DNA of 41,915 nt. It comes from a virus (lineage: Duplodnaviria; Caudoviricetes). Under the pieces are notes generated by a model. The model saw nothing but the letters and a program-made list of their open reading frames with translations. It did no database searches and was not told where the DNA came from. Positions 1,356-37,072 of this stretch are shown in pieces. The DNA is taken from positions 1 through 41,915 of the IMG/VR virus record IMGVR_UViG_3300020460_000024; one strand, given 5' to 3'. The position numbers and the translations under genes are program-made. Position 1 is the stretch's first letter, and every line of letters starts with the position of its first letter.

Positions 1356-2700
1356 GCTGCAACAAACGCGGTTAAAGTCCGCGACCAATACGGTGATGAA
1401 GGACCACCCGTTCTTCGCACCAGCACTAGCGGGTATGCCGCTAGTAATGGACCGTACAATCCCTACGGCTTGTACGGATGGTCGTGTTATCAGGTTCAAC
1501 CCTGATTTCACAGCAACTCTGAACGACTATGAACTGGTCGGCCTCCTCATTCATGAGGTGTGCCACCCCTTGTTTGGGCACCTTGTTCGTTTCGCTTCAG
1601 TAGTTGCGATAGGTAACGGGCGACTCGCCAACATCGCTACCGATTACGAGATCAACAACCTGCTGACTGAGTATAATAATTCATCCAGCAGACCAATCGT
1701 CCTGCCCAAGGATGGGTGTGTTGATCTTGAGCGGTTCAAGACGAAGGCCGCGGAGGCTATCTATAAGGCCCTCCAAGAGGAAGAGTTGCCACCGCCACCA
1801 CCGCCACCGCCACCACCTAAGCCTCCCGAGGGAGACGAAGAAGGGGGAGGCGAGAGCGAGGGTGATGGTGATGGTAAAGGTGGTGAGGAAGGTGAGGGCA
1901 CCAAGCCAGATGACTCCAAGGATGGTGAATCCAAGGGCGATTCCGGCACGCAGCCAGCCAAGCCGGAAGGTGGATCTGGTGGCCAACCCTTACCCGAGCC
2001 TGTATCGCCCGGTGAGTTTGAGATCCCCAAGGGTACGCCTGAGGAGATTGCCGAGCTGGAGGACAAGTGGCGGGAGATTCTATCTACCTCCATCCATGCC
2101 TCCAAGCTGCGCGGTGATGCTCCGGGTGAGTTCTTGGAGAAACTTCAGCAGTTGCAGAAGTCTCCTTTGAACATGAAGGATATTCTGCAGAAGTATGCAG
2201 ATGAGTTCTGCATGGATGAAGGCTCAACCAAGCCCGACAAGCGGTTCCTTGCCAACCACGACATATGTGTGGCGGGTATGGAGGACGAGCGTATTGGCTC
2301 CTTGGTGTTCGTCAATGACACCAGTGGGTCTATGCCCACCCGTGTTCACGAAGTGACCTGTTCCGTTATTCAGGAATCGGTTCACACCCTCAACGCCGAC
2401 AGGTTAATCCACATGGACGTTGATAGTCGGGTCTGTAAGGTACGGGAGTATGCCCCATACCAGTCAGTTGACCAGTCGATTCATGGCCGTGGGGGTACGG
2501 ACTTCCGTCCTGCCTTCAAGTGGATCGAGGAAAACCAAGTGGACCCGCGGGTGATCGTGTACGTGACCGATGGTTGGGGGGTTTTCCCCGACTCCCCTCC
2601 CAACGTGCCAGTCCTCTGGCTCACTTGGGGTAAGGGGGCTGACGAGTATCCGTTCGGGGACGTCATCGACCTCTACCAGATCGACCAAGCTACCACCTGA
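1327..2700 (+). CDS. HExxH metallopeptidase-like + vWA domain protein (DUF2201-like), MoxR partner
   Basis: N-terminal TACTDG...HEVCH...NIATDYEIN; poly-Pro/acidic Gly-rich linker; C-terminal MIDAS DTSGS, GRGGTDF, VYVTDG. Confidence 0.88.
   Translation: MSADNTALDELQQTRLKSATNTVMKDHPFFAPALAGMPLVMDRTIPTACTDGRVIRFNPDFTATLNDYELVGLLIHEVCHPLFGHLVRFASVVAIGNGRLANIATDYEINNLLTEYNNSSSRPIVLPKDGCVDLERFKTKAAEAIYKALQEEELPPPPPPPPPPKPPEGDEEGGGESEGDGDGKGGEEGEGTKPDDSKDGESKGDSGTQPAKPEGGSGGQPLPEPVSPGEFEIPKGTPEEIAELEDKWREILSTSIHASKLRGDAPGEFLEKLQQLQKSPLNMKDILQKYADEFCMDEGSTKPDKRFLANHDICVAGMEDERIGSLVFVNDTSGSMPTRVHEVTCSVIQESVHTLNADRLIHMDVDSRVCKVREYAPYQSVDQSIHGRGGTDFRPAFKWIEENQVDPRVIVYVTDGWGVFPDSPPNVPVLWLTWGKGADEYPFGDVIDLYQIDQATT
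1789..1818 (+). repeat. poly-proline (P10) coding tract, CCA/CCG repeats
   Basis: ccaccgccaccaccgccaccgccaccacct in the interdomain linker. Confidence 0.9.
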
Positions 2701-7041: not shown

Positions 7042-10000
7042 TTATTTGCCTTTTTCGATAACAATCCTTTCACCCGTATCCACATTGGTAAAGCGTGCCT
7101 TGGGACCGAATTTAATAAGGGCTTTTTCAAATCGCTCAAAGCGGTCTTTCTTGAAACCTTCTACATTGAACTCCCTACGCATATCCACCGAAGGTAGATA
7201 CCGTTCTGTTGCGCGGTAATCAACAATACCACGCCGTCTAGCGGGTCCGATTCCGGCATACTTGAGTCTTTCCAAAGCCTCTTGGCGGGTTATCGCCCCC
7301 GCTTCCATGTTCATGGCATCTTGTACCATGCCTACCAGCTCGGCGTCTATCCGCTTACGTTGTTCAATGACTCTCTTTGCCAGTTCTTCGATCTCACGAT
7401 CACCTTTCGGGCCATCCATATCCCGGCTACCGTCTCGTAGTGTGCGGTAAACCACATCTGTAAGATTCTTACGCTCAATCTGTCGGGAACGGGCCGCTTT
7501 ATAAATCGCAAGATCCAGCCGAACTTTCCTTGGCGATGCCGGTAGCATGATCTGAGTGATGGTCTCTTCAAGAGACCTCTTCAGCGTTTCATCGTCAGCT
7601 CCCTGACTGCTTTCCCACTCGCGTAGCCTCCTGAGGTTACCCGGCTCAACCGCTCGGTTTGCAAAATGGCCAAGCCCTTTCAGCATCTTCGTCTTAAGAG
7701 GGTCACCTTCATTAAAAACAGTGCCGTCTTTGTTTTCATAAGTCTCTTTCAGGGTTGATCTAATGAACCCCGGATTGATAAACCTTTGAGTGTACCCCTG
7801 CCAAAGATTCAGTGCTGCTGTCTGATAGTCGCCTCGGAGAAGCTCCAGAATAGCAGCAGTTGACCCATCAAAAACAGGGGACGCGGCATTGATGTATGTG
7901 AGGTCAAGAGAGTACAATGCGTCTTCCTCAAATTCCTGACCCGTGAAACCCAACACCTTCTTTAACAGGTGCCCCGGCAGGTAGATGTACTGGTTGAGTT
8001 TACCCCACGGTGGGGCGGCTTCCTTAAGAAGTTCTTCCTCCTCGTCTGTGGGGTTTATCCCCAGAACAACAGCCGATGCAATGGGAAGAGCAATGGACAT
8101 ACCTCCATGTACTGTGACTGCGGCAGCAAGTCTTTGGGCTCCGCGCGCCTGCATGACCGGATTGCTGCTTTCCATCTCTTCTTTGGGGATGGCGCGCATC
8201 TGGTTATGGACAATCCTGAACTGATCCAACCAGAACGAGAGGAAAGGATCAGCATGGAACGCGTTGTATCTACGTAACGATTTCGCAAAATTAGGCGCTT
8301 CGGAATATACAGGACTCATGGCTCTGGCTTTACGCGCGGCCTCAAACTCCAACTGCTCCTCGGTCATGTTCAGGAACCCAGTGTCTACGTTATTTTCCTT
8401 ATCATAATCGCGGGCGTTTCTAAGCGCCTCAAGCTCAGATTTGTACAACGCCTTTTTCCCTGCGTAATCAATCCCTTGAGCAAAATCGACCAACCTCCGA
8501 AAAGCTCCCCCCAGAACGTAGTCACCTCCCTTGGTCACTACCAGTAGTCCTTTCTTAACAAGGTTCTCCTCGGTCATATCCTTAGGGCTGAGTGCCATAA
8601 GTTCCTTGGTACCATCGAAGAAAATACCATAGGGGTTTTTACTGTTCTGAGTAGCGACCTGCTCCAAGTAGTTTAGGTCCATCTGACTCTGGTCGATTCC
8701 AAGTCTCTGATCTATTATTGACCGCGTAGTTTTTAATCGAGGGTCTCTTCCTATAATAAGTGCCTTCGCCTTACTCTCACCCCGTGCTGCTTTTCTGGTC
8801 CTACCAAAAGCCATTACGAACTCAGATACGACGCTAAAAGGGTTAACCAAAGCCGCCATGCCATACGATGTGACTGCGGTAATAGCATTTCTAAAATGAT
8901 ACGCAGGTACATTCGCAACGGTTTTAGAGAACATGAACAACGAGTTCAGCTTAAGGAACACATTCGTCAGGTGCGCCGCCCCCTTGACAAGAGTCGAACC
9001 ACTCCGGTCCGCTATGTCATACAGAGTGGTGGCTGCATTACCTCGACTCACATTTCGGTAAGCCTGCAGGGATGTATAAAGATCCTCAGGAACATACATA
9101 TCCAGAGAAGGATCGAACATAGATACAAACCCCTTGCCCTCTACCTTACTACTAAGAGGTCTAAGCGGAAGCCCAGTCCTGAAATTAACGTATGGGCGGG
9201 CACCCGCTTCCATCAAACCTGCGGCCTCTGCTTCTTCGTAGGTAAATACAAACGCGTCTTTTACGTTACCGTCTTTAACTCCTCCCACTTCCTTGAGATC
9301 ATTAAGGAAGGTCATGGACTCAGCCATCCGAGTCTGCATGGTAACTGTGGCGTAGAGACTAGCTAAGCCGTGTTCCTCGAAAGAACCGTCTTCGGTACGC
9401 TCAAGACCAAACTGCCCCAGCAGGTAGCGCACTCCCTCGTCAACATCTCCTTTGGATCTGAGGTTATCAACCTGCACCCGTGTGAGGCTAGCTACAGCTT
9501 CTCCTTGGGATTTTTCAATGTCTTTATGGTCTACCCGCTTACCTTCAGCCGTATCCAATAAAGTCGCTAAGAATTCATTCAAGGCTGCAACACCCTTATT
9601 ATCTCTAGTGACTAAATCTTCAGCGCGTTTTGTTACAAGCTGGTTCAACTCTTTTTTGGAAAGCTTCTTGAGTATTTTTGCCTCAGCTTCTTGGGCAGGA
9701 TCAGTAAATGTGACGCCCGCATCCAGACTTTCAATCAACGCCAGCAGTTCCTTTTTTATCTTTTTCTTTTCTACTTTGACCTGCTCGCCCTCAAAGAACG
9801 GTAAAGCCGCGTCCCTTCGGTCTTGGAATTTGCCGTCTGGGTTCATCACTTCCCGCAAATAAGCGATGTCGTTGTGTGCGCGGTATCCCCTTGTCAGGTA
9901 GATGCCCCCCATGCGGTCAAAGATAACCCCTATCTTACCGCCCCTTACATCAGTAAGCTTGTACTGTTTACTGATAAGCTTACTCAAGCTATCAATAGTG

Positions 10001-13000
10001 GCGCGGACAGCTAGGATAGCACTGACGACATCTCTTCCTAGCTGTGGGTTTTGGGGAGTACTCTCCTCCAAGAAAGCCCTTGCCTGTTTCTGGGTCTCCT
10101 TGAATTCTTCAACCAAGTTAAGTCTCAGCTGTTCTTCTACCCTATGTACCAGCATAGTCTTCATGTCCTGAAGTGCTTCAGGAGATATATGCTCAGCGGG
10201 GCGCTTGTTCTCGCGTACTTCTTTTCTGACCCGTGCAACTGCGGCTTTATAGCGGGCGTGGACCCGCGCCTTGGTTTCGGGGTCAATGTCCAGACTGTCG
10301 GTTGTACCCGCAGCAGCGTTCAGTGCTTTCAATATTTCGGGGGACGGAGTCTTACCGAATGCCTCATTCAGGAGTTTCTCCATGTGAAGCATATCTGTTT
10401 TTAAGAGAGCGTTAACTGCCTCAGACCACCGCTCATAATCTTTTAACATCCGCATTACCCGTGGGTCTTGCTTCCCGCGAGCTAACCAAGTAGCAAATTG
10501 CTTGGCGTATTTAGTGCCCCACTTGCCTTCGATATCAGAAAGGTGTTGAAATTCCCCGTTCTGGAAAAGGTGCCCGATCTCAATAGAATTGATGAGTTGT
10601 TCCCGAAGCATCGCCTCCACATCTCGTTCGTGTTCTTCTTCCTCTTGAGGACTTAGTTTTTTGCCGTCCTTCAACCTCGCTGAAATACGGTCTGCCCGAT
10701 CAAAGGTATTAAAAGCAGCTCGGATACCCGCAGATGGATTCTCGGGGTCAAACTTTATAGATCCTAGCGGCTCACCAAACTGACCCTCGACGTCCCTGAA
10801 ACCCAGCTCCTCAAGCTCCCCGTCTTGGAGCATCTTAAGGCTAAGATGGGCTCGCTGCACCATTTCAAGGAACCTAGGGTTGGGCACCGCATCCCCCAGA
10901 TCAGCTCTTAAATCCGTCATACGGGAAAGCAGCTTATTGAATACCCCAATAAGTTGCCGCTTAACCAAGCGCATGAATATAGGTCTAGTCGGATCGTACG
11001 AGATGTATTCCCCGTCGACGAGCCGACTATAGCTATGCAAAAGGGATGAACGCTCTGTAGAGATTCCTGATTTAATTCGCTTCTGTACTTCTCTTCGCAA
11101 CCCCTCAGAAAGCATGTTGTATAATCGCCCGACTTTAGAGCCTTTATCAGGGTATTGCGTAACCGCACCAGCCAGTTCACCCGGCGCGGGAGGAGTACGC
11201 TGCTTAAACTGCTTAAAGCCTTCTCTTATATCCTCTAGTACTTCTTCAAGTTCAGGGTCATCCCCCTTTTTATAAACCCCCCTATGCTTGCTGAAACGGG
11301 GCGATTGACGATGATATTCATATGCCATTTCAATGATGCCTTCTTCCCCCAATTCTTCTATGACCTCATCCCTCAGTTCTTGGGGGATAACGAGATACTC
11401 TACCCCGTGAATAAATTCTTCGGAGACGACAGCCTCTATGGAATCTTTAAGCAGATACGCACTTAAGATAGAAATTCTCTTACGCTCACGGGCGGTCAGT
11501 TGGCGCGTTCGCCGCGTGCGTCCACCGATCAACCCATAACTCTCCTCAAACGCCGCAAAGTCTAAATCTTTACCCTCCATCTCACCAAACCGATAATAGT
11601 CTAACCTAGCGTCGGGGGACGGAACGTCAGCCGTGGGGCCAAATGGCCCAACCCCCGAAGGGCGGATGCTTTTGGGCATAAAGAACCCCTCGGTCCCTAG
11701 AATATTTGTTAAGTAACCAGCCGCACCCTCAACGTCCTGAACGCCACGCTTCCCAAGCCGGGGGGCTCCGACTATCATGTCAAAAAGTAGATCCATTACA
11801 AACACCACAGCAGAAGCGTAACTCGTCTCGTCAAGGCCACTTTCATCCGGTTCGGCATCAAACTTCGTTTCTAAGATCGTCTGGTAAGCGGGAGCAATAT
11901 CCCCAGCCGGTTGTGTACTACCCGGAGCCCTCTCATGACTTTCGAGATACAAAACCCTAACCCCGTCAGGTGCTTGCCGAGCAACCTCATCCTTAAATAG
12001 CCTATCAAAAATCACACGAAACCGATTCTTCCTCAACTTTATTGCTTGTTCACTCCACGCCGACTTCTGGTCGTCATCCAGATTGTCCCACTCATCACGA
12101 CCTTTTTGGCTGTGCGCCCTTTCTAACCTGACGTATTCATCATAAAGAGCCCGCTCAACCTCAGCTTCTGGGGAGACCCCCGTGAACCATGACTTACGGA
12201 GAACTCCGTTGGGTGTTTTGTGCCGTTCAAATTGCAACGGATCTTGTGCAATACTCACAGCGGTCGCATCTAAACCAAGGATGTCCCGCAAATGGTTATG
12301 CGCTCTGCGACCTCGGTTGTGGTTTTCGATCAGCTCATTAACCTGCTGATTCACAAACACCTGTTCTTCATTTAGAGTAACAGATAGGTGAGAAGTATTT
12401 TCTGGGGCGTTCTTGAAGTTAGCAAAATTATACACATACTCCAAAGCTTCGGCAGCTTCACGCTCTACCTTGGTTTCCTTGTTAACAAGCTTCACAACAA
12501 GATCCATCATACGGCGGAACACACTCCTGTTCTCCACTGCTATCTTGCGGGTTGCCGCTTGGAAAGCCGCTGAACTAATAAACGTCGTAAAGAACTCTTC
12601 GTACCCTATTGTACGGGGTAAGATTATATCTGACGGCTCACCAATCACTCCAGCCAAATCCAAGTCCTCGTCTGACGTACCCTCCTTTGTAACTTCTCCC
12701 GACGCAGCGACCCCAAAAGGCTCGTATTGCTCGGGGTCTTGGAGGCCCGTGCGAGGGTCTATCAGGCCACCTTCATACGTAGCGCGGATCACCCTACGCC
12801 CTGTCCCGAACACGTAGTCCATCAGCGGGTCAGCCTTGCCGCGAGCTTTTGCTTTGAGCCATGCCTCATATGTTCTGTCGTAAAGAACTTCCATCTGCTT
12901 ACGCGCAGCTCTTTGCGCGGTCGTAAGCTCGGAGTCGGGGGTGTCCATTATACGAGCAAATACCGCGTGAGCGACTTCGTGTAATATGACGGAGCTAACG

Positions 13001-16000
13001 CCCTCCCCGTAACGGGCATTCAGGTTCAAGTAAATGGTGCCCGCGAAAGAATCCGATGGTACAAAACTACCTGCAAAGTGTGTTCCTCCCCGAACAATAC
13101 GAAAATCAAGTTCACTAATCTCTTTGCGGAAAGCCGAGAGCAGTCGCGCGGAGAGCTGAAGGTTGGGGTCCAGAGATGCTTTTCCAGCTTCCGCAAGTGC
13201 GCCTTTTCGCATAATCCGACTCCTCGTCGGTATTCCTAGCGCGCTGTCACCATAAGCTAGATCCTCAATAGCTTTTAGAACGCTATCAATGTCTCCGTCA
13301 ACAAGCTCCAGTTCCGCGACTTCCTTGCGGTTAAGGCTAAATGCCGCCCGCTGGTGTATGCTATCTTGGAATGCGGGGGCTCTCGACCCCCTAACTGCTC
13401 GCTCAAGATTAACCACTTCCGCGATCTGGTCGAGAGACGCGCCCGCGACAGAATCAACAGCTTGAGTGAAATGAGTTTCCTGCAGACCCTTTAAGGTATT
13501 TTTTACATCCTTGATTTGTATAACATTAGTGGAGAAAAGCTCTGCCAAAGCCAACAGACCAAGTTTTGAATCTTTAACAGCAGTTGCGAAGTTTTTCAAA
13601 AATTCTCCGCGGATCAAACGTAACTCCGAACCTGCTTCTCCGACAACAGAAGGGTCTAACAATGCATTCTGAAGACTTACCGCAATTTCTATATATTTTT
13701 GTTGGGCCGTCTGAGCCCCACGCATCTCAACTACTTCATCGAGTTCTTCATAAAACTCATTCAACGCCGCATTGGCTTCAGGACTTTCATCTAGAATAGT
13801 TGCTAACGCGGAAGCCAATCCAACTTTAATCGGCTCGTAGTCAGGAATCGCTTCCATACGTTCCTGTAATTCAAGGGCCTCTTTCGTTTTCTCACGCGAC
13901 TCTGTTTCTTCAACAACTTCGCCCTCACCCACATCGAGGCCGCGTGCTTGGCCAGCCCCCACATCCCCCAGCCCGACGCCCACATCCGCAGGGCGTCCAA
14001 CACCCTCGGGGGCTTCGGCACCAACCCCTTTGTCTGCTTCTTCATCGCCCCTGCCAGAAAGTTCCGCTCCTAAACTGTCAAAGGTATCTTCCCGATCTAA
14101 ACTTTGTGCCCTGTTTGACATCCCACGCACACTATTGTCAGCATAGAGCTGCATCGCGCGGTCTACTTGTAGTTTGATGATGTCTCTAGCAGGGTTGTAA
14201 AGATTTGGTACCGGCCTAATTGCCCCCTCTGCCGACGGATTAGCGGCCCCCTTGTTACGGGGGGTATCGCCCCGTGTAGTAGACGCCTTTAATGCTTCAG
14301 CAACTTTGCCTAGAATAAAGTCTAGAACATCTATATCGGGGTCTTTTTTAAGTGCTTTTTCAAGAGCTGTAGAAGTTGCAATCCGTGAGCCCATCAAAAA
14401 CTCAGATAAGGCGAAAGCTGCGGCACCTCTCCCAGACTCAACAGAAACACCTTCCCCCGCCATCGACTTGAAAATCTTCAAGGCCGCGGCATACATGGGG
14501 TCACTTGCCATATCCTCAGGGATAGTGACATTATCATGTATTGCAGCTACAAGCGCATCAGCATCACTCTGGTCTTCGCGCTTGTTTTCCATTGCTTGTA
14601 TAAGGGCTACCTCAACCGCGGCGCGTTCCGCACGTGCGGTCAGCCCACTTAGATACAAGCTTCTTATGTCTCCACCCACGCGGATCATAACGCCCTCCGC
14701 ATTCCTATAGCTACTGTCTTTTGCCCGCGCCCCCCGTTCGGGATCATTAACCTTTTCAATAAGATCCAGCTTATCCTTTGAAGTAGGGATCTGAATACTG
14801 GTATAGTTATTGTTGACCCAATCAGCTAGTATCCTGACATACGTTCCGATAGTTACCTTGTTTGGGGCCGTAGCGGCTGTCTTTGCGTCAAGATTGTTCT
14901 CGTCTACTCTGATCTCCAGAGCAGTGTCCTCGTCAACAAAGTGCATCAAGAACTGAACCTTCCGCCTAATTTTGCCCGTAGTAACGTCTGGGTTAGCAAC
15001 CCTGCTCCGCTCTTTGTTTCCAAGAATACTGGTTTCTTTAGAAAGGTCGGAACCAACGGGATAGAAAATGTCGTAAACTTCTTTCGTATCTTGGGATAAG
15101 GTTTCTCCTGCGCGGTCTCCTCTAAAAGTCTTGTTTACTTTATCACCGCTAAAACCCACTGGGATCGGAATATAATAGTGCCCCAGTTCATCCATAGCCT
15201 TCGCCATTGCGCGAGGGTCGTTGTTAAAAAGAATAACGGGTTCGTCGGGTCTACCCCCCTCCCCATCATCAAAGATACCTCCGTCAACATCCCTAATCAA
15301 CCATACCGTAGAACCACCGAACTTGACCCCAGAAGAAGTCACACCCCTACCCCCCAGCCATTGGTGGTCGGGGATAAATACTCCGTGTTCTTCTAAATGT
15401 TGTTTTACCTCTAACTTTTTGCGGGGTCTTGAACCTTCACCTGACTCATCTGCAATTTTGTCACCTAGAATAGGGTGGTCCGCTATAATCCCCAGATTAA
15501 TTGTGCGGGCGGTTTTCGATTTTTCGATTGTATTTAGCTTAAGCGACTTCGGTATTCCCATCGCAGCCACGGGCCAGTCGCCCTCAGATCGGGACTTTAA
15601 TGCCCCTGCGGCGATCATGTTCTGCTCAAATGTTTCACGTAGAGGTTCGGGAGCAGGGGGTTCTGACCCTGACTCTGGCTCTTGAGGGGCAGATTCGACG
15701 GTTAAAATTGAAGGGTCGAAAATTGAATACTCAACCGAACCTCCCGGTAGTTCCTGCTTAACCCCCTTAATGCCGTGTTTGACTAGAAGCTCCCTAGCTT
15801 TTTCTCTACCAAGAAGTTTAACAAAAGCCCCAATAGGATTCACCCCATCACGAAGGTGATTTACACCGCGGACCCTTTGAGGGCCTTCAGACATTTCCCC
15901 TATATTATTGAAGCCTATTTCTTTGGCAGCTGAGTTCAGCATATTGATGGCCTCTTGGAAGCCTGCGTCGTCCAACCCAAAATGTAGCTTGGCCGCTTGT

Positions 16001-19000
16001 AATATAACGTGGGCGGATTCATCCACTTCCGCAGACATAAGTTTCCCGCGCTTCTTGTATACGTTCTCAACCGCAGATTCATCGTTCAGGAAATATATTC
16101 CCGGCCCAAGCGCCGCGTACCCTTCCATAGGGGCGACCCCACCCCGCTCGCTTTGCCCCACACGGCTAAAATCATAGTCCGTAAAACTGGGCAGATCTTC
16201 TGATTGCCCCGTATATAATATAGTTGGGCCTGCGGGCTCTGGCTCTGGCTCTGGCGGCTGCTTCCCTTTTTTCTTCTTCGCAGCTTTCTTCTTCGCAGCT
16301 TTCTTCTTCGCAGCTTTCTTCTTCGCAGCTTTCTTCTTCGCAGCTTCTTCCGCTTTTGCTTTTCTTAAAGCGGCAACGCGCTCGCGCTCTTGCTCCCGTT
16401 CAAACTGATCTTCCAACTGTTGTTGGCGTCTGCTTGCACCTTCAATCTCAGCGCGACGGTCGTTAATTGTTTTTAACCCCGTCAAAACATCCCTCAGAGA
16501 TCTAAGAAGAGTCAGTTCCTGTTGGCGCGCGGGGCGCTCCTTTGTCTCGGAGTCATCAAAAGCTTTTTCTTTGTCAGCAATAAGATTGCTGACATCCCCG
16601 ATGACCGCATTATTTGGCTGTTCGGTTAAGAATTTTGCGCCTAGTGGTCGGCCTTGGTGCCCGCCACCAGCTTTGTAAGCCCGCGTTCCTTCGCTTAGGC
16701 TTCGCGCTTTATGCAGGCTTTCAAACTCTTCCCGCAATCCGGCAAGTCTGTCCAAAAGCTCTTCTTCTATATTATCAATCGCGCGAAGGTCTTCTTGTTC
16801 CCTAAGGTCCCTCCGCAGGGGCTGCATAGCTTTCTCTACAAACTCAATAGCTGTGCGCTCAAGCTCCTCATCAGTTCTTCTATACTCTAGATCTCTTTGA
16901 CTTTCAGTGGCCCTGAGTCTTTCGAGCACACCTTGGACGAGCTGCTCTTTATCAGAAACAGAAACAATGGACTCTCCCGTACCCGACGAAGTGTTACCCC
17001 CACCAGCTCCTTCATGAAGTGTTTCTTCGATAGCGTTTTTTACATCCTCTTCGTTAGCGTTATCTAGGTTTTGGCCTGCCTCTTCCTCGGTGACACCTTT
17101 TAGCAACTGTTCTTCAAGGTAACCCTTGGACTCTCTAAGAGCAGCCCTGTCACTATTGTCCTTGGTAGTGTTGAGCTTTTCTTTAAGAGCTTTATCTACT
17201 ACTGCTAAAGCAGCTTTGCGGTCCGCTTCATCTGCTTGAGCTGGAGCAGCAATAACATTGAAAAAATTAGCTAGATCTACTTCTGCTGCTCTAAAAGCTT
17301 CTGGGTTAGTTGGGTCCTGTATAATAAGACCAAGAGCTTCAAGGGCGGCGCGGGTATTATTTTCCTGTAACTGAGCTTGTTCTGATTCTGAATCGGCTTC
17401 AGAACTTTCGGCGTCTTCTTTTTTACTCTGCTCCGCTTCAGGATCGCCTGTTGAGGTTTCAGCTGACTTTGCCCTGAGTATTGAAAGCTCAGTTATAAGG
17501 GTGGCCACTTCGCCCTCTAATCTCTTTTGCTCCTCTTCGCTGGTTGCAGCATCTAGTTTAACTTGAAGATCAACAATTTCTTGCTCAATCTTATCCGCTG
17601 TATTTATATCATGGTCACTCGATGACTCATCCTTGCTCTGCTCCCGCTGTTTTTCCCGGTCCTTAAGCCGTGCCGCAATAGCTTCTTCTGGGAGAGAACG
17701 CGCAGCAACTTGGAGCCCACCAAGTATTTCTTCTACTGTAGCGGCGGATTGAGGGCTACCGCTCTCTTCAAGTTTAGCTACTAGTTGCTTGTGAATTTTT
17801 CTAGCAATTTTAGGTAGCGTTTCCCGCTCTACTTGCGCTTGTTCGCTTAGTTTTGTTAATTCACTCTTAAAAAGACCCTTCAAACCACGCCCGCCCTTTG
17901 CAAGTGCGGGTGCTCCAGCCCCTAATACGACTCCGTATATAGCCCCCATTCCCCCTTCCTTCAGCCTGTCCATGAAAGGGCGGTCCATGTCAGAAGCCGA
18001 AGTCCCAGCCATAGCCGCAGACCGTGCAAAAGTGTTAAGAAAAGCATCGAAACCTTCTTGCAGCCCTTCAAATGCCGCACCCCTAGCTATAGGGCCGCGT
18101 AACCACGCAAACTTTATGCCGTCCCCCACTACCTTATTCGCAACATCTGTAACAAAGTTATTAAAGTTCGCATATTTTTTGCCGCGTAGCTTTTCAAAAA
18201 CACGTTTGACCTGTCCCGTAGTCGCCCCGCCAGTAACCCAGTCTTCCAAACCACCCATGCCCAGACGCTGGAGACCCACCACTGTAGCCACAGTGAACAT
18301 CCCACCCATTACAGCCCCACCAAATGCACGGTCGTGAATCTCTTCAGCAGATAACGGTTTTCCGTCCGATCCCGTAGCGCCTTGGAGCGCCATGTGTATA
18401 TCCCCATACGTGTGTGCGGATGATCGCAAAAACGCTGGGGCTGAAATAGCGGGGTACTGCCCCGCCCTAATCCCCCGGCCAATCGCCGTAAGCGCATCGA
18501 CTGCCGCTTCTGACCGCATAGACATAGGCAGTGCAGCAGAAACTCTTTTGGCTGACTTAGAGTTTTTAATTACGTTTTCAACGAACCGCTTGGGCAAAAC
18601 TCCCTGCGGAAGGTTACCCAAAGTCATTTTGCTAAGCCCGCCATCAGTAGCTCGCAAAAATGAGCTTTTCAAAGCAACTTGGCCTTTGGCCCCACTCACT
18701 GTCCCCGACCACCCCGGCAGCAAATTGTCTGCTTCCTTGGCATATTTTTTTACTGAAGGAAGCGTCTTGATGTACCCGCGCGCATACGCTTTTTCTAGTG
18801 ACAGACGCATTGTATCTTCGGCACCGTCTTTAAGAATGTTCCTAAGACCAAACCCGAAGGCCCCTGTGATATAAGATTTTGCTGTCGCTGTAAGGCCGTA
18901 CTTAGATAGAGCAGCAGAAGCATAAGCGGTTGACCCCACACCAGCTGTGGGGGTTGCTAAAGCAAAAGACGCACCAATGTCTATAGCTAGAGGCACAGCC

Positions 19001-20931
19001 ATCGTGAAAGCCGTGTCCGCAAACGTGTGCTTGCGCCCAAACATAGATGCAATAGCTCGGTCAGCCTGCCGCTCGCGCGCGCTAGTCGCTAAAACCGACG
19101 CCATGTTTTTTTCCATCTGCGTGTTAGGCCCGTCGTCTAAGTACCCAACTCCCCCCGTCCAGAAATCTACGGTGTCCCCTACAATACCAGCACCAAACAT
19201 CCCGAGAGCGCCCACAAGATCCCCTGCGCCTTGAGAAGCTGCCCTAACTGTCCGGTTCCAAAAATTTCTCCCTGACTCAGAGTCTAGCCAACTAGCCAAT
19301 ACTTCTGCCCCGCCCTCATCACTGACCCATTGCCCCGGAGACACTTCGCGGAGGCTTGCTTGAACGCTGTCACTTGTCTTCCCAACGTGAGCAATCCAAG
19401 AGTTTCGGATATCTGCTGTTGAGTTGTATATGTTAGTTAAAAAATAATCATACTTACTTCCTAGGTAAGCGAGACGCCTAGCTTCAAGCTGGTCTTTTGT
19501 TAACCCAAGTTCTTCGGCGTTTTCCTTAAGGTTTTCAAAATCAAGCTTTGATACCAACAGCCCCGGATGAATAATTTTTTCTCCAAACTCTGTTGTGTAA
19601 ATGTTGTTTGCTACACGCTTAGCAGAGTCTTTTTCAAGGGTCTTTTTGTCCTGCCTAACAGCCCGCATTTTAGCCTCATGGTACGGCAACATTCCGTTAG
19701 CCGCAGCCATCTGATAAGCCATAGATTGAAAAGCTTTACCAATAACTTCATCACTCAGATGCTCGGAAGACCCCCTGAACATCTGCCTGAAATCTTCAAC
19801 AGCTCCCGTATAATTCTGGTTAACAAGAGAATCCGGTTTATCCTCTACCAGTTCGGTTTGTGCTAAAAAATTACCCTCGGGGGTTTTAACAAATGCCGGT
19901 ATGTAACCCCCAGACTTGGGGTGTGTCAGCACAACTTGTTGTATTAAATTTTCTAGCTGGAACATCATGGTCCCAGTATGAGGACCTCCTTTTTTGAGGG
20001 CGCTAGAAATCATCCTCTTGGCTTCTAGGTAATTTTGAGTTTTTACCGGACGCCGCTCGTCAGAATTTTCCAACTGTAACCCATTAGCAAGTGTGTCGAG
20101 AGCATAGCCTCTAGCTCTATAATCTATAAACCCTTCTCGGATCGACCTATCAACAGACTCTTCTCTTTCATCTTCAGGGACATTGTCCGCAAAGATGAAC
20201 TTAGACCCTACTTCTTGTGTTTCAGGGTCTGTAAACGGTACCTCTATGACACTCGCCCCCCGCTGGCGGTGTACCAACTGTTTATAGTCAGGCCATACTT
20301 TTTCAGCGTACTGTTTAACAAGATCGGAAAACTGATCTACGTATGCCTGCTCTTCTTCCGTTACTGTCCACAACTCGGGCTGTTCATCAGCCTCGCTCGT
20401 AAATACGGCTTTACCATCAATGTAGTTCATTTCGACGGATGGCTTCCGCTTATTAGGTCCACTGATCTTATCAATCTTATCGGCAATCCTGAAAAACTTA
20501 TTAGAGTCAAAATTCTGCGCGTCTAGCTGGGCTCTCAATTCGTTCCCATTTACAGCCTCGCTTAAGAGAATATACGGCGTTGCAGTCCCCCCGACTCCCC
20601 CGTCAACCTGCTCGCGAAAAATGCGGTCCGATTTTTCCTCAACAGGAATTGAGTAGAACTGGTCATAGGCGCTTTGAACTTCTTCCTTTGACCTTACCTC
20701 TTGTGCGTCCGCAATAAAATTGGCGAGCTTGCTGCCCACCATCTCCAGCTCATCTGGGCGTGGCTTTTCAAATCCTTGCGGCACGTTCTGGGCCTGCTGC
20801 ATAACGTAATGTGCATAGCCCGCGCGGAGTTGTACTTCGTCCTGTCCAAGAGGAATGCCTCTGGCATCAACAGGGTTGTTCTCCTTCCATTCTTCATAGG
20901 AAGGCAGCTTATCAAGATGGGTCAACGCCAT
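7042..20931 (-). CDS. giant (4629 aa) internal virion/ejection protein, polyvalent type (ART-like + zincin domains)
   Basis: Uninterrupted 13.9-kb ORF. Gly/Ala-rich hydrophobic segments in the N-terminal quarter; ART-like block LYTG...GPGIYF...GIKGV...EYSIFDP; HEVAH zincin motif; C-terminal KTVANVPAYHFRN and PVYS...PFLSF motifs like those of large phage ejection proteins; lies downstream of terL. Confidence 0.8.
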   Translation of the reverse strand: MALTHLDKLPSYEEWKENNPVDARGIPLGQDEVQLRAGYAHYVMQQAQNVPQGFEKPRPDELEMVGSKLANFIADAQEVRSKEEVQSAYDQFYSIPVEEKSDRIFREQVDGGVGGTATPYILLSEAVNGNELRAQLDAQNFDSNKFFRIADKIDKISGPNKRKPSVEMNYIDGKAVFTSEADEQPELWTVTEEEQAYVDQFSDLVKQYAEKVWPDYKQLVHRQRGASVIEVPFTDPETQEVGSKFIFADNVPEDEREESVDRSIREGFIDYRARGYALDTLANGLQLENSDERRPVKTQNYLEAKRMISSALKKGGPHTGTMMFQLENLIQQVVLTHPKSGGYIPAFVKTPEGNFLAQTELVEDKPDSLVNQNYTGAVEDFRQMFRGSSEHLSDEVIGKAFQSMAYQMAAANGMLPYHEAKMRAVRQDKKTLEKDSAKRVANNIYTTEFGEKIIHPGLLVSKLDFENLKENAEELGLTKDQLEARRLAYLGSKYDYFLTNIYNSTADIRNSWIAHVGKTSDSVQASLREVSPGQWVSDEGGAEVLASWLDSESGRNFWNRTVRAASQGAGDLVGALGMFGAGIVGDTVDFWTGGVGYLDDGPNTQMEKNMASVLATSARERQADRAIASMFGRKHTFADTAFTMAVPLAIDIGASFALATPTAGVGSTAYASAALSKYGLTATAKSYITGAFGFGLRNILKDGAEDTMRLSLEKAYARGYIKTLPSVKKYAKEADNLLPGWSGTVSGAKGQVALKSSFLRATDGGLSKMTLGNLPQGVLPKRFVENVIKNSKSAKRVSAALPMSMRSEAAVDALTAIGRGIRAGQYPAISAPAFLRSSAHTYGDIHMALQGATGSDGKPLSAEEIHDRAFGGAVMGGMFTVATVVGLQRLGMGGLEDWVTGGATTGQVKRVFEKLRGKKYANFNNFVTDVANKVVGDGIKFAWLRGPIARGAAFEGLQEGFDAFLNTFARSAAMAGTSASDMDRPFMDRLKEGGMGAIYGVVLGAGAPALAKGGRGLKGLFKSELTKLSEQAQVERETLPKIARKIHKQLVAKLEESGSPQSAATVEEILGGLQVAARSLPEEAIAARLKDREKQREQSKDESSSDHDINTADKIEQEIVDLQVKLDAATSEEEQKRLEGEVATLITELSILRAKSAETSTGDPEAEQSKKEDAESSEADSESEQAQLQENNTRAALEALGLIIQDPTNPEAFRAAEVDLANFFNVIAAPAQADEADRKAALAVVDKALKEKLNTTKDNSDRAALRESKGYLEEQLLKGVTEEEAGQNLDNANEEDVKNAIEETLHEGAGGGNTSSGTGESIVSVSDKEQLVQGVLERLRATESQRDLEYRRTDEELERTAIEFVEKAMQPLRRDLREQEDLRAIDNIEEELLDRLAGLREEFESLHKARSLSEGTRAYKAGGGHQGRPLGAKFLTEQPNNAVIGDVSNLIADKEKAFDDSETKERPARQQELTLLRSLRDVLTGLKTINDRRAEIEGASRRQQQLEDQFEREQERERVAALRKAKAEEAAKKKAAKKKAAKKKAAKKKAAKKKKGKQPPEPEPEPAGPTILYTGQSEDLPSFTDYDFSRVGQSERGGVAPMEGYAALGPGIYFLNDESAVENVYKKRGKLMSAEVDESAHVILQAAKLHFGLDDAGFQEAINMLNSAAKEIGFNNIGEMSEGPQRVRGVNHLRDGVNPIGAFVKLLGREKARELLVKHGIKGVKQELPGGSVEYSIFDPSILTVESAPQEPESGSEPPAPEPLRETFEQNMIAAGALKSRSEGDWPVAAMGIPKSLKLNTIEKSKTARTINLGIIADHPILGDKIADESGEGSRPRKKLEVKQHLEEHGVFIPDHQWLGGRGVTSSGVKFGGSTVWLIRDVDGGIFDDGEGGRPDEPVILFNNDPRAMAKAMDELGHYYIPIPVGFSGDKVNKTFRGDRAGETLSQDTKEVYDIFYPVGSDLSKETSILGNKERSRVANPDVTTGKIRRKVQFLMHFVDEDTALEIRVDENNLDAKTAATAPNKVTIGTYVRILADWVNNNYTSIQIPTSKDKLDLIEKVNDPERGARAKDSSYRNAEGVMIRVGGDIRSLYLSGLTARAERAAVEVALIQAMENKREDQSDADALVAAIHDNVTIPEDMASDPMYAAALKIFKSMAGEGVSVESGRGAAAFALSEFLMGSRIATSTALEKALKKDPDIDVLDFILGKVAEALKASTTRGDTPRNKGAANPSAEGAIRPVPNLYNPARDIIKLQVDRAMQLYADNSVRGMSNRAQSLDREDTFDSLGAELSGRGDEEADKGVGAEAPEGVGRPADVGVGLGDVGAGQARGLDVGEGEVVEETESREKTKEALELQERMEAIPDYEPIKVGLASALATILDESPEANAALNEFYEELDEVVEMRGAQTAQQKYIEIAVSLQNALLDPSVVGEAGSELRLIRGEFLKNFATAVKDSKLGLLALAELFSTNVIQIKDVKNTLKGLQETHFTQAVDSVAGASLDQIAEVVNLERAVRGSRAPAFQDSIHQRAAFSLNRKEVAELELVDGDIDSVLKAIEDLAYGDSALGIPTRSRIMRKGALAEAGKASLDPNLQLSARLLSAFRKEISELDFRIVRGGTHFAGSFVPSDSFAGTIYLNLNARYGEGVSSVILHEVAHAVFARIMDTPDSELTTAQRAARKQMEVLYDRTYEAWLKAKARGKADPLMDYVFGTGRRVIRATYEGGLIDPRTGLQDPEQYEPFGVAASGEVTKEGTSDEDLDLAGVIGEPSDIILPRTIGYEEFFTTFISSAAFQAATRKIAVENRSVFRRMMDLVVKLVNKETKVEREAAEALEYVYNFANFKNAPENTSHLSVTLNEEQVFVNQQVNELIENHNRGRRAHNHLRDILGLDATAVSIAQDPLQFERHKTPNGVLRKSWFTGVSPEAEVERALYDEYVRLERAHSQKGRDEWDNLDDDQKSAWSEQAIKLRKNRFRVIFDRLFKDEVARQAPDGVRVLYLESHERAPGSTQPAGDIAPAYQTILETKFDAEPDESGLDETSYASAVVFVMDLLFDMIVGAPRLGKRGVQDVEGAAGYLTNILGTEGFFMPKSIRPSGVGPFGPTADVPSPDARLDYYRFGEMEGKDLDFAAFEESYGLIGGRTRRTRQLTARERKRISILSAYLLKDSIEAVVSEEFIHGVEYLVIPQELRDEVIEELGEEGIIEMAYEYHRQSPRFSKHRGVYKKGDDPELEEVLEDIREGFKQFKQRTPPAPGELAGAVTQYPDKGSKVGRLYNMLSEGLRREVQKRIKSGISTERSSLLHSYSRLVDGEYISYDPTRPIFMRLVKRQLIGVFNKLLSRMTDLRADLGDAVPNPRFLEMVQRAHLSLKMLQDGELEELGFRDVEGQFGEPLGSIKFDPENPSAGIRAAFNTFDRADRISARLKDGKKLSPQEEEEHERDVEAMLREQLINSIEIGHLFQNGEFQHLSDIEGKWGTKYAKQFATWLARGKQDPRVMRMLKDYERWSEAVNALLKTDMLHMEKLLNEAFGKTPSPEILKALNAAAGTTDSLDIDPETKARVHARYKAAVARVRKEVRENKRPAEHISPEALQDMKTMLVHRVEEQLRLNLVEEFKETQKQARAFLEESTPQNPQLGRDVVSAILAVRATIDSLSKLISKQYKLTDVRGGKIGVIFDRMGGIYLTRGYRAHNDIAYLREVMNPDGKFQDRRDAALPFFEGEQVKVEKKKIKKELLALIESLDAGVTFTDPAQEAEAKILKKLSKKELNQLVTKRAEDLVTRDNKGVAALNEFLATLLDTAEGKRVDHKDIEKSQGEAVASLTRVQVDNLRSKGDVDEGVRYLLGQFGLERTEDGSFEEHGLASLYATVTMQTRMAESMTFLNDLKEVGGVKDGNVKDAFVFTYEEAEAAGLMEAGARPYVNFRTGLPLRPLSSKVEGKGFVSMFDPSLDMYVPEDLYTSLQAYRNVSRGNAATTLYDIADRSGSTLVKGAAHLTNVFLKLNSLFMFSKTVANVPAYHFRNAITAVTSYGMAALVNPFSVVSEFVMAFGRTRKAARGESKAKALIIGRDPRLKTTRSIIDQRLGIDQSQMDLNYLEQVATQNSKNPYGIFFDGTKELMALSPKDMTEENLVKKGLLVVTKGGDYVLGGAFRRLVDFAQGIDYAGKKALYKSELEALRNARDYDKENNVDTGFLNMTEEQLEFEAARKARAMSPVYSEAPNFAKSLRRYNAFHADPFLSFWLDQFRIVHNQMRAIPKEEMESSNPVMQARGAQRLAAAVTVHGGMSIALPIASAVVLGINPTDEEEELLKEAAPPWGKLNQYIYLPGHLLKKVLGFTGQEFEEDALYSLDLTYINAASPVFDGSTAAILELLRGDYQTAALNLWQGYTQRFINPGFIRSTLKETYENKDGTVFNEGDPLKTKMLKGLGHFANRAVEPGNLRRLREWESSQGADDETLKRSLEETITQIMLPASPRKVRLDLAIYKAARSRQIERKNLTDVVYRTLRDGSRDMDGPKGDREIEELAKRVIEQRKRIDAELVGMVQDAMNMEAGAITRQEALERLKYAGIGPARRRGIVDYRATERYLPSVDMRREFNVEGFKKDRFERFEKALIKFGPKARFTNVDTGERIVIEKGK
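16271..16345 (-). repeat. 5 x 15-bp perfect tandem repeat encoding (AAKKK)5
   Basis: ttcttcttcgcagct x5 on the + strand. Confidence 0.95.
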
Positions 20932-28968: not shown

Positions 28969-29619
28969 ATGAGTGATGACACTACGGCTCTCGCAGCCGC
29001 ACCTAAAGGAGGGATTATCCCTAACGAAGCTGGCTTCATTATTGACGCCTCGGATATTGATATCCCCCGACTGAACATCGTCCAAAAGACGAGCGACATT
29101 GACGCTCCCTTTGGAAGTGTTGTTCTGGACAAGAAGCACATTATGCTCGCCCCGGAAGCGGCAACCGAAGTCTCGGTTCTAGCTGCAACCAAGGGGTGGC
29201 GCGAAGATGTGCCCTTCGAGGACGACGTAATGCCGCAGATCGCCTACACAGAGGCTGATCGGGCGCGTATTGCCGAGTCTTCGGAATACAACCTGTTGGA
29301 GTTCGCAGAAATTACTCTGCTTTTCCAACAGCCTGAGGACAGTGAAAATGACAGTGCTTACCCATTTACCATTGGTAAGCTCAGTTATGCCCTCGGCAAA
29401 ATCAACGTCGCGAAGGACGCCTACAGGCAAACCTTCAAGCGGTTAGCGACGTACGCAGCCTTCAACCGAGACAAGAATCTCGGGGAAGTTCTGTGGAACT
29501 TTGAGTCCTGCCCCATTACTCGAGGCAAGTATAGTTGGTTTGCACCAATGCTCACCGTTTCTCAGAACACACCTGATAAGGCTGTGACCGCATGGATCAG
29601 GGATTTCAACGGAAACTAA
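28969..29619 (+). CDS. putative single-stranded DNA-binding/annealing protein
   Basis: DIDIPRLNIVQ N-terminal motif and position between exonuclease and polymerase. Confidence 0.5.
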   Translation: MSDDTTALAAAPKGGIIPNEAGFIIDASDIDIPRLNIVQKTSDIDAPFGSVVLDKKHIMLAPEAATEVSVLAATKGWREDVPFEDDVMPQIAYTEADRARIAESSEYNLLEFAEITLLFQQPEDSENDSAYPFTIGKLSYALGKINVAKDAYRQTFKRLATYAAFNRDKNLGEVLWNFESCPITRGKYSWFAPMLTVSQNTPDKAVTAWIRDFNGN

Positions 29620-29852: not shown

Positions 29853-29864
29853 GTAAGATCAAGG

Positions 29865-29952
29865 GGGTTTAGGAAATGCGGCGGGGTGTTGCAGCTCTGG
29901 TTAGTGATGTATCCTGTCCAGTAACCGCATAAAACTGGACTCCCCTAAACCT
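29865..29952 (+). ncRNA. candidate structured cis-regulatory RNA with pseudoknot in the polA leader
   Basis: GGTTTAGG 29866-73 / CCTAAACC 29944-51; GTCCAGT 29916-22 / ACTGGAC 29934-40; loop CCGCAT 29925-30 complementary to ATGCGG 29876-81. Confidence 0.5.
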
Positions 29953-29997
29953 ACGGCCCTCACTGGTTCGTTCATTCCAGTGGGGGCCGTTTTACTT
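29953..29997 (+). terminator. intrinsic terminator/attenuator-like hairpin immediately upstream of polA
   Basis: 14-bp stem 29953-66 / 29977-90 with one G-U pair, 10-nt loop, followed by TTTACTT. Confidence 0.7.
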
Positions 29998-30003
29998 AAA
30001 TCT

Positions 30004-35654: not shown

Positions 35655-36218
35655 TTATTGTAACATACGTTGTTCTACTGCTTCTTCAAAAGAAGGGGTC
35701 TTTTTATTGGCCTCTGATAAAAGAGCCTTAGAGAGGTTTTCCATTCGGGGAGCTACTCCACTTCCAGATTTAACTGCGGCCCGGTACTCATCGTTGTCTA
35801 AAAACTCTTTTGACGCTTTTTCAAACTCACCCTTGCGGATATGTTCAAGCGTCTTGGGAGAACCTGTTATACCGCCCCTGTAAAACGAAGATATAAGCTG
35901 ACGTTGGGTGTTGGGCTGCATATCAAAGAACCCTTTACCAATCAAAGATACTACCTTGGGTAGGCGGTCAGATAACTCCGACTTAGCTAGTTTTATGGCC
36001 GCGTCTCTACTTAAAGTCTTATTATAAAAAGGAGACTTCTTGTAAGCTGCATCAGAACCATCCCCAATAAGATGCCCCACACCAATCGTCCATTTGCCTT
36101 TGGTGTCTTTGTACGCTTCAGGTCGGAACCCTTCGTATGCCAACAAAACATCAAAAGCTTTGTCGATGTTTACTGGAGGTTTATTCGGGCTCGTTAAAGC
36201 CGTTTTCATCTCGGACAT
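35655..36218 (-). CDS. GH24 (T4-type) lysozyme
   Basis: YEGFRPEAYKDTKGKWTIGVGH gives the E-x8-D-x5-T catalytic triad. Confidence 0.85.
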   Translation of the reverse strand: MSEMKTALTSPNKPPVNIDKAFDVLLAYEGFRPEAYKDTKGKWTIGVGHLIGDGSDAAYKKSPFYNKTLSRDAAIKLAKSELSDRLPKVVSLIGKGFFDMQPNTQRQLISSFYRGGITGSPKTLEHIRKGEFEKASKEFLDNDEYRAAVKSGSGVAPRMENLSKALLSEANKKTPSFEEAVEQRMLQ

Positions 36219-36227
36219 AGTATCAGG

Positions 36228-36527
36228 TTATTGTGGGTTAAATCGTTTTAAGAGGCGTTCCCACGCGGGAAAAAATATTTCATCCATGCATCGTACGATG
36301 GCCTCTTCTTCATAGGCTTCACAATACGCGAGACCTGATATTCCTAGGGCCGCATGGATCATCTCATGTCGAATAGTCTCTAGTAGTTCTTTACCTTTGA
36401 GGGTCTTGTCTATTATGATTAGTTTTCGCCTATGGGAGTATATACCGTAACAGTCATCATCGCCCAGATCTCGGAATTTTATCCGAACGCGGATGCCTGC
36501 CATAGTTATGCTCTTGGGGATGTTCAT
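36228..36527 (-). CDS. small HExxH zincin-like metalloprotein
   Basis: YGIYS...IIID...TIRHEMIHA...EEAIV. Confidence 0.7.
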   Translation of the reverse strand: MNIPKSITMAGIRVRIKFRDLGDDDCYGIYSHRRKLIIIDKTLKGKELLETIRHEMIHAALGISGLAYCEAYEEEAIVRCMDEIFFPAWERLLKRFNPQ

Positions 36528-37072
36528 CCATCAACAAACTTTGTTATGGCGCGGGCATAAACACCGGCCAGTTTACCTCGGTTATTATTTATCATCCGCC
36601 ACTCCTCGACGTTTGTTCCAAAAAAGGGTTCTCCAATAACCGCATAACAATGTGTCTCACGTAAAAACGCGGACCCTCTCTGGCGAGACTGCCGTGGTTT
36701 TACTCCACGCGATGCCAAATCAGGATATGCTTCATCCATCTCATCCTTCAGGACCGTGGCGAGTTTCAACCCACCTTTACTAGAGTGCCAATAAAGCCAC
36801 TCATGGCCAGTCGCTGCGGGGCTGGCGGCATTGAAATGAAGCTCAATAGCTGCTTTTACCCCATCGCACTTCATCTTACGCGCCACATTGCGGATAGCAG
36901 AAGAGTAGGTGCTGAATTCATAGTTATCGTAAATCTTGTAATCCACATCGAGAACATGACCAATCCTGCGGGCTAGGTCTCGGTTGAAGTCCCACTCACT
37001 CACTACATATTCACCAGAGCTGTAAGCTCCTTCATCACCTTTGCGGCTATGGCCTACACAAATACCAATCAT
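36524..37072 (-). CDS. N-acetylmuramoyl-L-alanine amidase (Amidase_3-type endolysin)
   Basis: VGHS (His), SEW (Glu), ELHFNA (His), IGEPFF (catalytic Glu). Confidence 0.88.
   Translation of the reverse strand: MIGICVGHSRKGDEGAYSSGEYVVSEWDFNRDLARRIGHVLDVDYKIYDNYEFSTYSSAIRNVARKMKCDGVKAAIELHFNAASPAATGHEWLYWHSSKGGLKLATVLKDEMDEAYPDLASRGVKPRQSRQRGSAFLRETHCYAVIGEPFFGTNVEEWRMINNNRGKLAGVYARAITKFVDG

Follow-up and report, generated by a model that had tools for sequence, protein, structure and literature searches.

We found that about 70 bases of a phage genome fold into a pseudoknotted RNA belonging to a real and strongly covarying class of phages and archaea, for which Rfam 15 holds no curated family. 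The DNA analyzed, hereafter the window, is the 41,915-nt (41.9-kb) Caudoviricetes record IMGVR_UViG_3300020460_000024 (positions 1-41,915), and its single copy of the motif (29870-29940) lies in the gap between an 86-aa ORF and the gene for a family A DNA polymerase (polA). An earlier note, based on the letters of the window, had described this gap as a pseudoknotted leader with an attenuator hairpin gating polA, that is, as an undescribed cis-regulatory switch or small RNA. The undescribed structured RNA is upheld by our analysis, whereas the polA-gating switch found no support and the polA-attenuator reading is unlikely. We propose, with a probability of roughly 0.4, that the motif is a stand-alone small RNA and not a polA switch. 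It would serve as a decoy, its invariant core being likely to bind a conserved partner, either a protein or a nucleotide ligand.

Table 1. Positions of the motif, its parts and its neighbors in the window
Feature	Position	Strand	Remarks
SSB-like gene, 216 aa	28969..29619	+	OB-type fold, weak match; upstream context only
ORF, 86 aa	29592..29852	+	no family (no Pfam/PHROG match); its stop codon lies ahead of the motif
P0 5' strand, optional closing helix	29862..29867	+	pairs with 29941-29946
P1 5' strand	29870..29874	+	pairs with 29912-29916
A-W linker and pseudoknot 5' strand	29875..29881	+	pseudoknot strand 29877-29881; covariation
P2 hairpin	29882..29899	+	pairs C-G, G-U (invariant) and G-C (covarying), followed by a variable stem and loop (6-49 nt)
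P2 pairing	29882-86/29895-99	+	
J2/1 junction	29900..29911	+	starts with conserved G-U-N-A
P1 3' strand directly into P3 5' strand	29912..29921	+	predicted coaxial stack
L3 loop	29922..29934	+	U-A-A, pseudoknot 3' strand (29925-29929), U-A-A-A-A
P3 3' strand and P0 3' strand	29935..29946	+	29935-40 and 29941-46
Intrinsic-terminator-like hairpin	29953..29997	+	14 bp (29953-29990), -27.9 kcal/mol, short U tract; separate element
Family A DNA polymerase gene, 590 aa	30004..31776	+	PF00476 E 8e-34, phrog_17 E 2e-84; downstream context only

Fold and covariation of the motif

The motif consists of three helices and a 5-bp pseudoknot, and is thus a four-helix pseudoknot. Copies were collected with patterns that demanded sequence, not pairing, which yielded about 280 viral stretches (strict pattern, an estimate), 44 stretches with a long P2, about 1200 metagenome stretches (also an estimate) and 21 GTDB contigs. 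Pooling gave 263 distinct copies and 190 representatives less than 90% identical to one another. The complete pseudoknot of five pairs is found in 96% of these representatives, as compared with 59% in partner-swap controls, and the corresponding values are 86% versus 29% for P2, 87% versus 15% for P3 and 92% versus 61% for P1. We also analyzed an alignment of 45 sequences, hand-picked for equal segment lengths and therefore leaning toward the model, in which 96.7% of cells pair and 13 of the 20 pairs change on both sides; no shuffle matched its score, and slid controls reached 35-44%. In this alignment the pseudoknot is 100% paired, P1 is 97.2% paired with two-sided changes in three of its four pairs, and P3 is 92.2% paired with two-sided changes in five of six.

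Freeing parts of the search pattern removed the circularity of such counts. When the pseudoknot letters were freed, new compensatory pseudoknots appeared: six of 75 distinct matches had a five-pair pseudoknot, the others being mostly chance, and eight matches in seven of 100 loci from this search were strong to the covariance model. With the middle of P2 unconstrained, the G-U pair was kept in all 87 matches, and the third pair was swapped to A-U in six and to C-G in two. With the L3 flanks freed, GUAA occurred in 70 and UAAAA in 71 of the 74 matches that passed the structure (out of 103). Three of the 21 GTDB pattern matches (L228, L233 and L234) were not matched by the covariance model and were dropped; these and four representatives with a junction longer than 20 nt are the seven of 190 left out of the spacing counts. 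In 184 of the 190 representatives, the start of J2/1 and the P3 loop are 15-19 nt apart, and the geometry is rigid, in that the P1 3' strand abuts P3 and the pseudoknot strand abuts P2. This geometry suggests that P1 stacks coaxially on P3 and the pseudoknot on P2, and that the A-rich loop clamps the two stacks together. Pairing of J2/1 bases with the 5' bases of L3 was considered and dropped, since their one-sided U/C changes are uncompensated, and the minimum-free-energy fold of the region was rejected by covariation.

All 200 shuffles of the region fold less well than the region itself, whichever strand is taken (z -4.06 for the + strand and -4.78 for the - strand), and fold stability alone does not give the strand. 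The conserved G-U pairs, to which the earlier note had also pointed, favor an RNA transcribed from the + strand. All the complementary stretches that it named are present in the window at the positions it gave, and a conserved pseudoknotted + strand RNA indeed emerged from the covariation check that it had suggested across the polA-upstream regions of relatives. Its fold, however, was altered by the comparison. The hairpin proposed at 29916-22/29934-40 is borne out as 29916-21/29935-40, and five pairs of the ATGCGG/CCGCAT pseudoknot (29877-81/29925-29) covary, whereas the sixth is mostly U.U in relatives. The wobble-rich helix 29882-89/29909-16 did not hold, with 55.8% of cells paired in the 45 sequences and 77 of 500 shuffles scoring as high. 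Nor did the closing helix 29866-73/29944-51, which has a perfect analogue in two of 44 polA loci and excludes the conserved P1. P1 (29870-74/29912-16), P2 (29882-86/29895-99) and the optional P0 (29862-67/29941-46) had been missed. P0 is present in 24 of 33 copies with a spacer of at least 13 nt, and in the register given here a G-to-A change in L003 converts one of its G-U pairs into A-U.

None of the 4227 families of Rfam 15 matched the window at gathering score; three chance matches of 13-15 bits appeared at E up to 10. A scan of 60 further loci gave no match on the motif, so that the novelty claimed earlier stands against this database. On the features compared here and below, the motif lies outside Rfam 15 and outside the ZTP, STAXI, HDV/theta and type III antitoxin classes. 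Pseudoknot 1 of tmRNA resembles the motif, and we treat this as convergence. RNA motifs named DUF2800 and DUF2815 are known from Rfam. No Rfam match connected either of them to our motif, and they do not appear in the main text of PMC5737381. A search of full-text literature, largely outside subscription papers, found no description of the motif. The motif or a subfamily of it may sit unnamed among 8495 automated IMG/VR candidates (DNAVirus_n; PMC10690425; Fremin et al. 2023), and the accompanying tables include several entries of 70-85 nt with Verrucomicrobia hosts.

Occurrence and placement in phages, bacteria and archaea

The 21 GTDB matches comprise seven contigs labelled Verrucomicrobiota, six Bathyarchaeota (four genomes), two Acidobacteria, three from other bins and the three chance matches. 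In a verrucomicrobial contig of 1.1 Mb, one copy lies in an apparent prophage, read by eye, with ORFs for small membrane proteins on one side and, on the other, an integrase-like ORF that is next to a tRNA. Among 151 Verrucomicrobiota genomes, the covariance model found the motif in two, one being the seed and the other a weak match; it also found the motif in six of 151 Bathyarchaeia genomes and in 10 of the 41 genomes in the family of the Bathyarchaeia genome G006 (one weak). G006 itself carries eight strong copies amid metabolic genes (aminotransferase, ABC transporter, GMP synthase and ProC). Among cultured phages, blastn found none with the motif, and their polA relatives are at most 26% identical to that of the window.

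The motif lies about 6 nt behind whatever precedes it. A same-strand ORF ends within 124 nt upstream in 128 of 169 evaluable copies, and the distance from its stop codon to P1 has a mode of 6 nt, a value that has no background distribution of phage intergenic distances and to which genome compaction may contribute. When the upstream ORFs within 40 nt were grouped into 45 peptide families, the median distance was 6 nt in 12 and 5-7 nt in 17 of them, and below 5 nt in none; the stop codon falls inside P1 in single members of two families. Of the 24 copies in which P0 was found, 20 have it starting 1-9 nt behind the stop. A scan of 110 of the 164 upstream ORFs showed HNH, SSB, exonuclease VIII, RusA, DnaB, primase, dCMP deaminase and capsid among the upstream families. 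The downstream side is just as varied; of its 155 ORFs, 108 were scanned, and a family was found for 29 of these. By a crude ORF call for 128 copies, the nearest large downstream ORF is on the same strand in 89 (within 30 nt in 22) and on the opposite strand in 29, and there is none in 10. A stimulator of stop-codon read-through or frameshifting was also considered and rejected, since none of 44 loci has a polA frame that stays open as far back as the upstream stop codon, and the offsets are spread over the three frames (13/22/9).

What precedes the motif may also be an RNA. A tRNA lies directly before it in L314 and L330 and directly after it in L139 and L243 (four of 40 loci scanned), and the upstream tRNA 3' ends (two of 40 loci) are 7-10 nt away; in the window, ARAGORN found no tRNA and no tmRNA. 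Head-to-tail pairs of the motif occur in L314, L467, L468 and L409. In L300 and L315, the motif comes 5 nt after the end of a manA RNA that scores above gathering, and the motif is in turn followed by a U-tailed hairpin and a promoter-like sequence, the latter read by eye. The manA RNA (RF01745) is likewise an orphan structured RNA of marine phages, but it is a different family of 192 positions, and is a neighbor of the motif, not a homologue. A variant in which the loop no longer pairs with the 5' strand, and which therefore has no pseudoknot, was seen in three loci (L300:1495-1573, L315:1495-1573 and L369:292-370), directly 3' of a manA RNA and 5' of a U-tailed hairpin.

The Bathyarchaeia copies have a setting of their own. 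Each is closed by a P0 of 9-11 bp and has a TATA-like 14-mer ahead of it at a fixed distance, with 13 more bases between the 14-mer and a G-G-U-G start. The same 14-mer stands at the same distance before protein genes and before a second RNA, and one of the copies abuts a convergent gene. With the spacing that is canonical for archaeal promoters, transcription would begin right at the terminal helix of either RNA (P0 in the motif). The 14-mer recurs about nine times in 15 kb (L527, which is G006:C4; also L529, L460, L416 and L496). This repeat could be a shared promoter or regulon, or the attachment site of a cassette. In one metagenomic locus of the Bathyarchaeia subfamily, a tRNA carries a 48-nt insertion in its anticodon loop, which we take to be like the archaeal tRNA introns.

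The motif also leads to a second RNA in the same archaeal arrays. This RNA-like element of about 150 nt is conserved in L393:1577-1730, L411:1085-1240, L431:712-868, L520:322-470 and about 14 further sediment or Bathyarchaeia loci, where it either follows the motif immediately or has a TATA-like repeat of its own ahead of it. A 6-bp terminal helix closes it, and several pseudoknots are possible within it. It had no Rfam match, a pattern search of the viral contigs gave no matches, and eight close sequences show little covariation. In our view it faintly recalls the c-di-AMP aptamer.

The polA lineage and the terminator-like hairpin

In the window, the motif is embedded in a replication module on the + strand, which runs from a RuvC-like resolvase through an SF2 helicase, a DUF2800 exonuclease, a 216-aa protein and the 86-aa ORF to the gap, polA and a primase-helicase. 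The gene directly upstream of the gap is the 86-aa ORF, not the SSB-like gene, which lies one further up. The 216-aa product of the SSB-like gene had no Pfam or PHROG match and no Foldseek match at E 0.001. Its AlphaFold model is confident (pLDDT 87.6), its best VIA-align matches were the phiC31 RDF (Z 7.5), the BRCA2 OB domain (Z 6.0) and gp32 (Z 4.7), all below Z 8, and PF23977 occurs in 12-32% of the members of the Atlas clusters that match it. The modeled structure therefore shows a weak OB-fold likeness, compatible with an SSB. Homologues of the 86-aa ORF precede the motif across the whole polA lineage (upstream peptide family 3); the ORF and these homologues have at their ends an acidic tail with a Q-L-E-L-P-like motif, which we take to be reminiscent of a sliding-clamp-binding peptide.

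We also examined loci fetched via the polymerase (61-100% identity). Of the 64 distinct regions, 44 have the motif ahead of polA, and there is one further truncated copy; the motif also precedes polA in a second polA lineage (L284 and L085). In a quick tree of the first lineage, in whose scoring L183 was mislabelled by a regular expression, the motif occupies the same site in 41 of 57 rows and is absent from two groups. A complete motif-less genome contains no good copy elsewhere, with only a 14-bit match. Given these two clades and this genome, the motif is dispensable. The near-complete relatives of the window phage are 58-67 kb in size, and all five carry exactly one copy each, as does the window.

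The 14-bp terminator-like stem described previously, 13 nt before the polA start codon, is confirmed (stem 29953-29990, ATG at 30004), although its 10-nt loop exceeds the range of a simple terminator scan. This hairpin is independent of the motif. A strong hairpin stands before polA whether or not a locus bears the motif (all 15 of the motif-less loci have it), and it never overlaps P3; conversely, L169 has the motif and no hairpin. The U tract of the hairpin is weak in one subclade. Across 43 loci, the motif pairs with the arms of its own hairpin no better than with those of others (-10.1 versus -10.8 and -11.3 versus -11.9 kcal/mol), and the 5-mer on which the earlier note had based an alternative pairing between the two elements occurs in three of 43 loci. 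Together with the occurrence of the same motif in contexts without polA, without a terminator or without a same-strand downstream gene, these observations argue against a gating of polA by the motif. Likewise, autoregulation setting the ratio of SSB to polymerase and primase, as had been suggested, cannot explain the copies beside tRNAs, manA RNA or archaeal metabolic genes. In one motif-less clade (L195, L201, L202 and L204), a different simple hairpin occupies the place of the motif before the terminator-like stem.

Possible functions of the motif

We prefer the reading of a free-standing structured RNA because it fits every context without special pleading. In the window, the replication operon of the phage would likely be transcribed with the motif as its 3' tail, and this transcript would likely be ended by the separate terminator-like hairpin, presumably an ordinary leaky terminator that would also set read-through into polA independently of the motif. 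The small RNA might then be freed by trimming in the short AU-rich leader. In general, the motif RNA would either ride on a transcript or be started as one of its own, and it may act in trans, with the invariant core engaging a partner that bacteria and archaea have in common. This reading is supported by the independence of neighbors, the 45 unrelated upstream families, the clusters with tRNA and manA RNA, the tandem pairs, and the Bathyarchaeia copies with a long P0 behind the TATA-like 14-mer. On the other hand, a cis role would also explain the retention of the motif site in 41 of 57 tree rows of the polA lineage; the 89 of 128 copies with a same-strand downstream gene, 22 of them within 30 nt, count against a decoy as well, the 6-nt spacing also fits a role inside an mRNA, and the TATA-like repeat might instead serve recombination or protein binding. 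Public RNA contigs of the window phage (eight runs listed, two with a small share) cover 29156-29602 only and stop short of the motif, and none was placed on the relative L205 either, so that they are evidence neither for nor against its transcription. Precedents for an RNA decoy are the type III antitoxins (ToxI and CptI) and the phage pseudo-ToxI, which, as described in passages of PMC5086642, combine an H-type pseudoknot and an A-rich loop with a terminator and an ORF, an arrangement that the motif shares. However, by the same passages, those antitoxins form arrays of 34-45 nt repeats, have an endoribonuclease toxin gene downstream and covary with their own toxin, whereas our motif is single, is followed by polA or varied genes, and is conserved in sequence across domains.

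Alternatively, the motif may be a small self-cleaving ribozyme of a new class. A cut close to its 5' side, such as in the linker of two bases that follows P1, would separate upstream mRNA, tRNA or manA RNA from the downstream part. We regard this as possible yet doubtful. Its size, pseudoknot, invariant junction bases and invariant G-U pair are those expected of a ribozyme. It is present in both phages and archaea, can be multicopy, neighbors tRNAs and flanks single genes, and a P1 of only 4 bp would let the 5' product leave easily. Theta and other HDV-like or small ribozymes are also small and pseudoknotted and occur in phages, sometimes beside tRNAs, and theta ribozymes provide a precedent for phage ribozymes at tRNA 3' ends in the portion of PMC10879173 that treats them. 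Yet no Rfam ribozyme family matched, and the HDV-like fold described there has a nested double pseudoknot with a catalytic C in J4/2, whereas the motif has a single pseudoknot and another helix order. A theta-like placement would put the 5' edge within 5 nt of a tRNA 3' end, but the motif is 7-10 nt away rather than flush, and is also found upstream of tRNAs. Moreover, tandem pairs without cargo and copies with their own promoter would gain little from cutting. A wider proposal, which we hold tentatively, is that a new class of self-cleaving ribozymes (or small-molecule aptamers), of which the motif would be the first member, is common to phages of Verrucomicrobiota and other bacteria and to Bathyarchaeia chromosomes, and that the motif was expanded in Bathyarchaeia into promoter-bearing arrays with the second undescribed 150-nt knotted RNA.

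The ZTP (pfl) riboswitch has the topology P1, pseudoknot strand, P2, junction, P1 3' strand and then P3 with a pseudoknot-closing loop. The motif has the same element order and a size similar to that of RF01750, it precedes polA in 44 of 64 loci of one lineage and in a second, and tandem aptamers and promoter-proximal copies are typical of riboswitches; all this would suit a cis riboswitch, or a protein-responsive attenuator of read-through into the downstream gene (polA in the window). We nevertheless consider this unlikely. There was no match to RF01750 even at E 10, and the conserved bases differ. In the pfl section of PMC2864571, the terminator overlaps the 3' region of the aptamer and the downstream genes share one pathway (purine or one-carbon metabolism), whereas our hairpin is separate, persists in the motif-less loci, is missing in L169 and shows no motif-specific antiterminator pairing in the 43 polA loci. 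The motif has no purine or formyl-THF context, and its convergent and gene-less downstream contexts show no coherent regulon. The T4 gene 32 operator, to which PMC10690425 refers in part of its text, is also a pseudoknot in a phage replication operon, but it lies upstream of the SSB gene, whereas the motif lies downstream of an SSB-like gene and in unrelated contexts as well. Less favored still is a cis block to exonucleases just outside the footprint of the terminating ribosome, giving 3' protection to the upstream mRNA or xrRNA-like 5' protection to the downstream part. The modal 6-nt distance of the folded edge from the stop, the family medians of 5-7 nt (none below 5) and the starts of P0 within 1-9 nt agree with it. 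Tandem duplication is known in xrRNAs, which also counts in its favor. Against this, the 5-nt spacing after manA RNA is not ribosome-specific, 3' protection would already come from the strong hairpin that follows 10 nt further on, and some 20 near-invariant bases exceed the needs of a steric block. Very improbable, finally, is a single-stranded DNA structure, or a passenger of a small mobile cassette, without RNA function. The motif often lies amid DNA-handling genes and the 14-mer recurs around the Bathyarchaeia copies, and in its entry in PMC2864571 the STAXI motif (RF01728), with a pseudoknot and tandem copies, is likewise near SSB and other DNA-handling genes. STAXI is, however, a 2-3-fold repeat with UUCG loops in Enterobacteriales by the same entry, whereas copies of our motif are mostly solitary, and the motif has four helices, extends over phages and archaea and lacks an Rfam match. 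The invariant G-U pair and the G-U substitutions in the pseudoknot and P1 make sense on one strand only, placement after stop codons is on the same strand, there is a single copy in each of five near-complete relatives out of five, the tree of the polA lineage shows vertical inheritance, and, by eye, the 14-mer was not seen around the phage copies.

According to a criterion in one part of PMC5737381, pseudoknotted small RNAs with many near-invariant bases in more than one phylum usually perform demanding biochemistry. The motif is an RNA spanning two domains without a curated family, and at 70 nt with about 190 natural variants it lends itself to design and controls. As a ribozyme, an aptamer or a protein decoy, it would add an RNA function to phages and a rare conserved structured RNA to Bathyarchaeia.

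Several other features of the window and its relatives were observed. The polA match in L196, L211 and L213 spans about 2630 bases, as against 1770, which suggests an insertion such as an intein or intron, and a polA homologue of 872 aa (P0115) was also found. One third of the window (7042-20931, - strand) is taken up by an ORF of 4629 aa with no Pfam or PHROG match. A MoxR-like AAA ATPase gene followed by a DUF2201 metallopeptidase/vWA gene occupies 50-2700 (+ strand), and two lysins, a phage lysozyme and an Amidase_3, are clustered at 35655-37072 (- strand).
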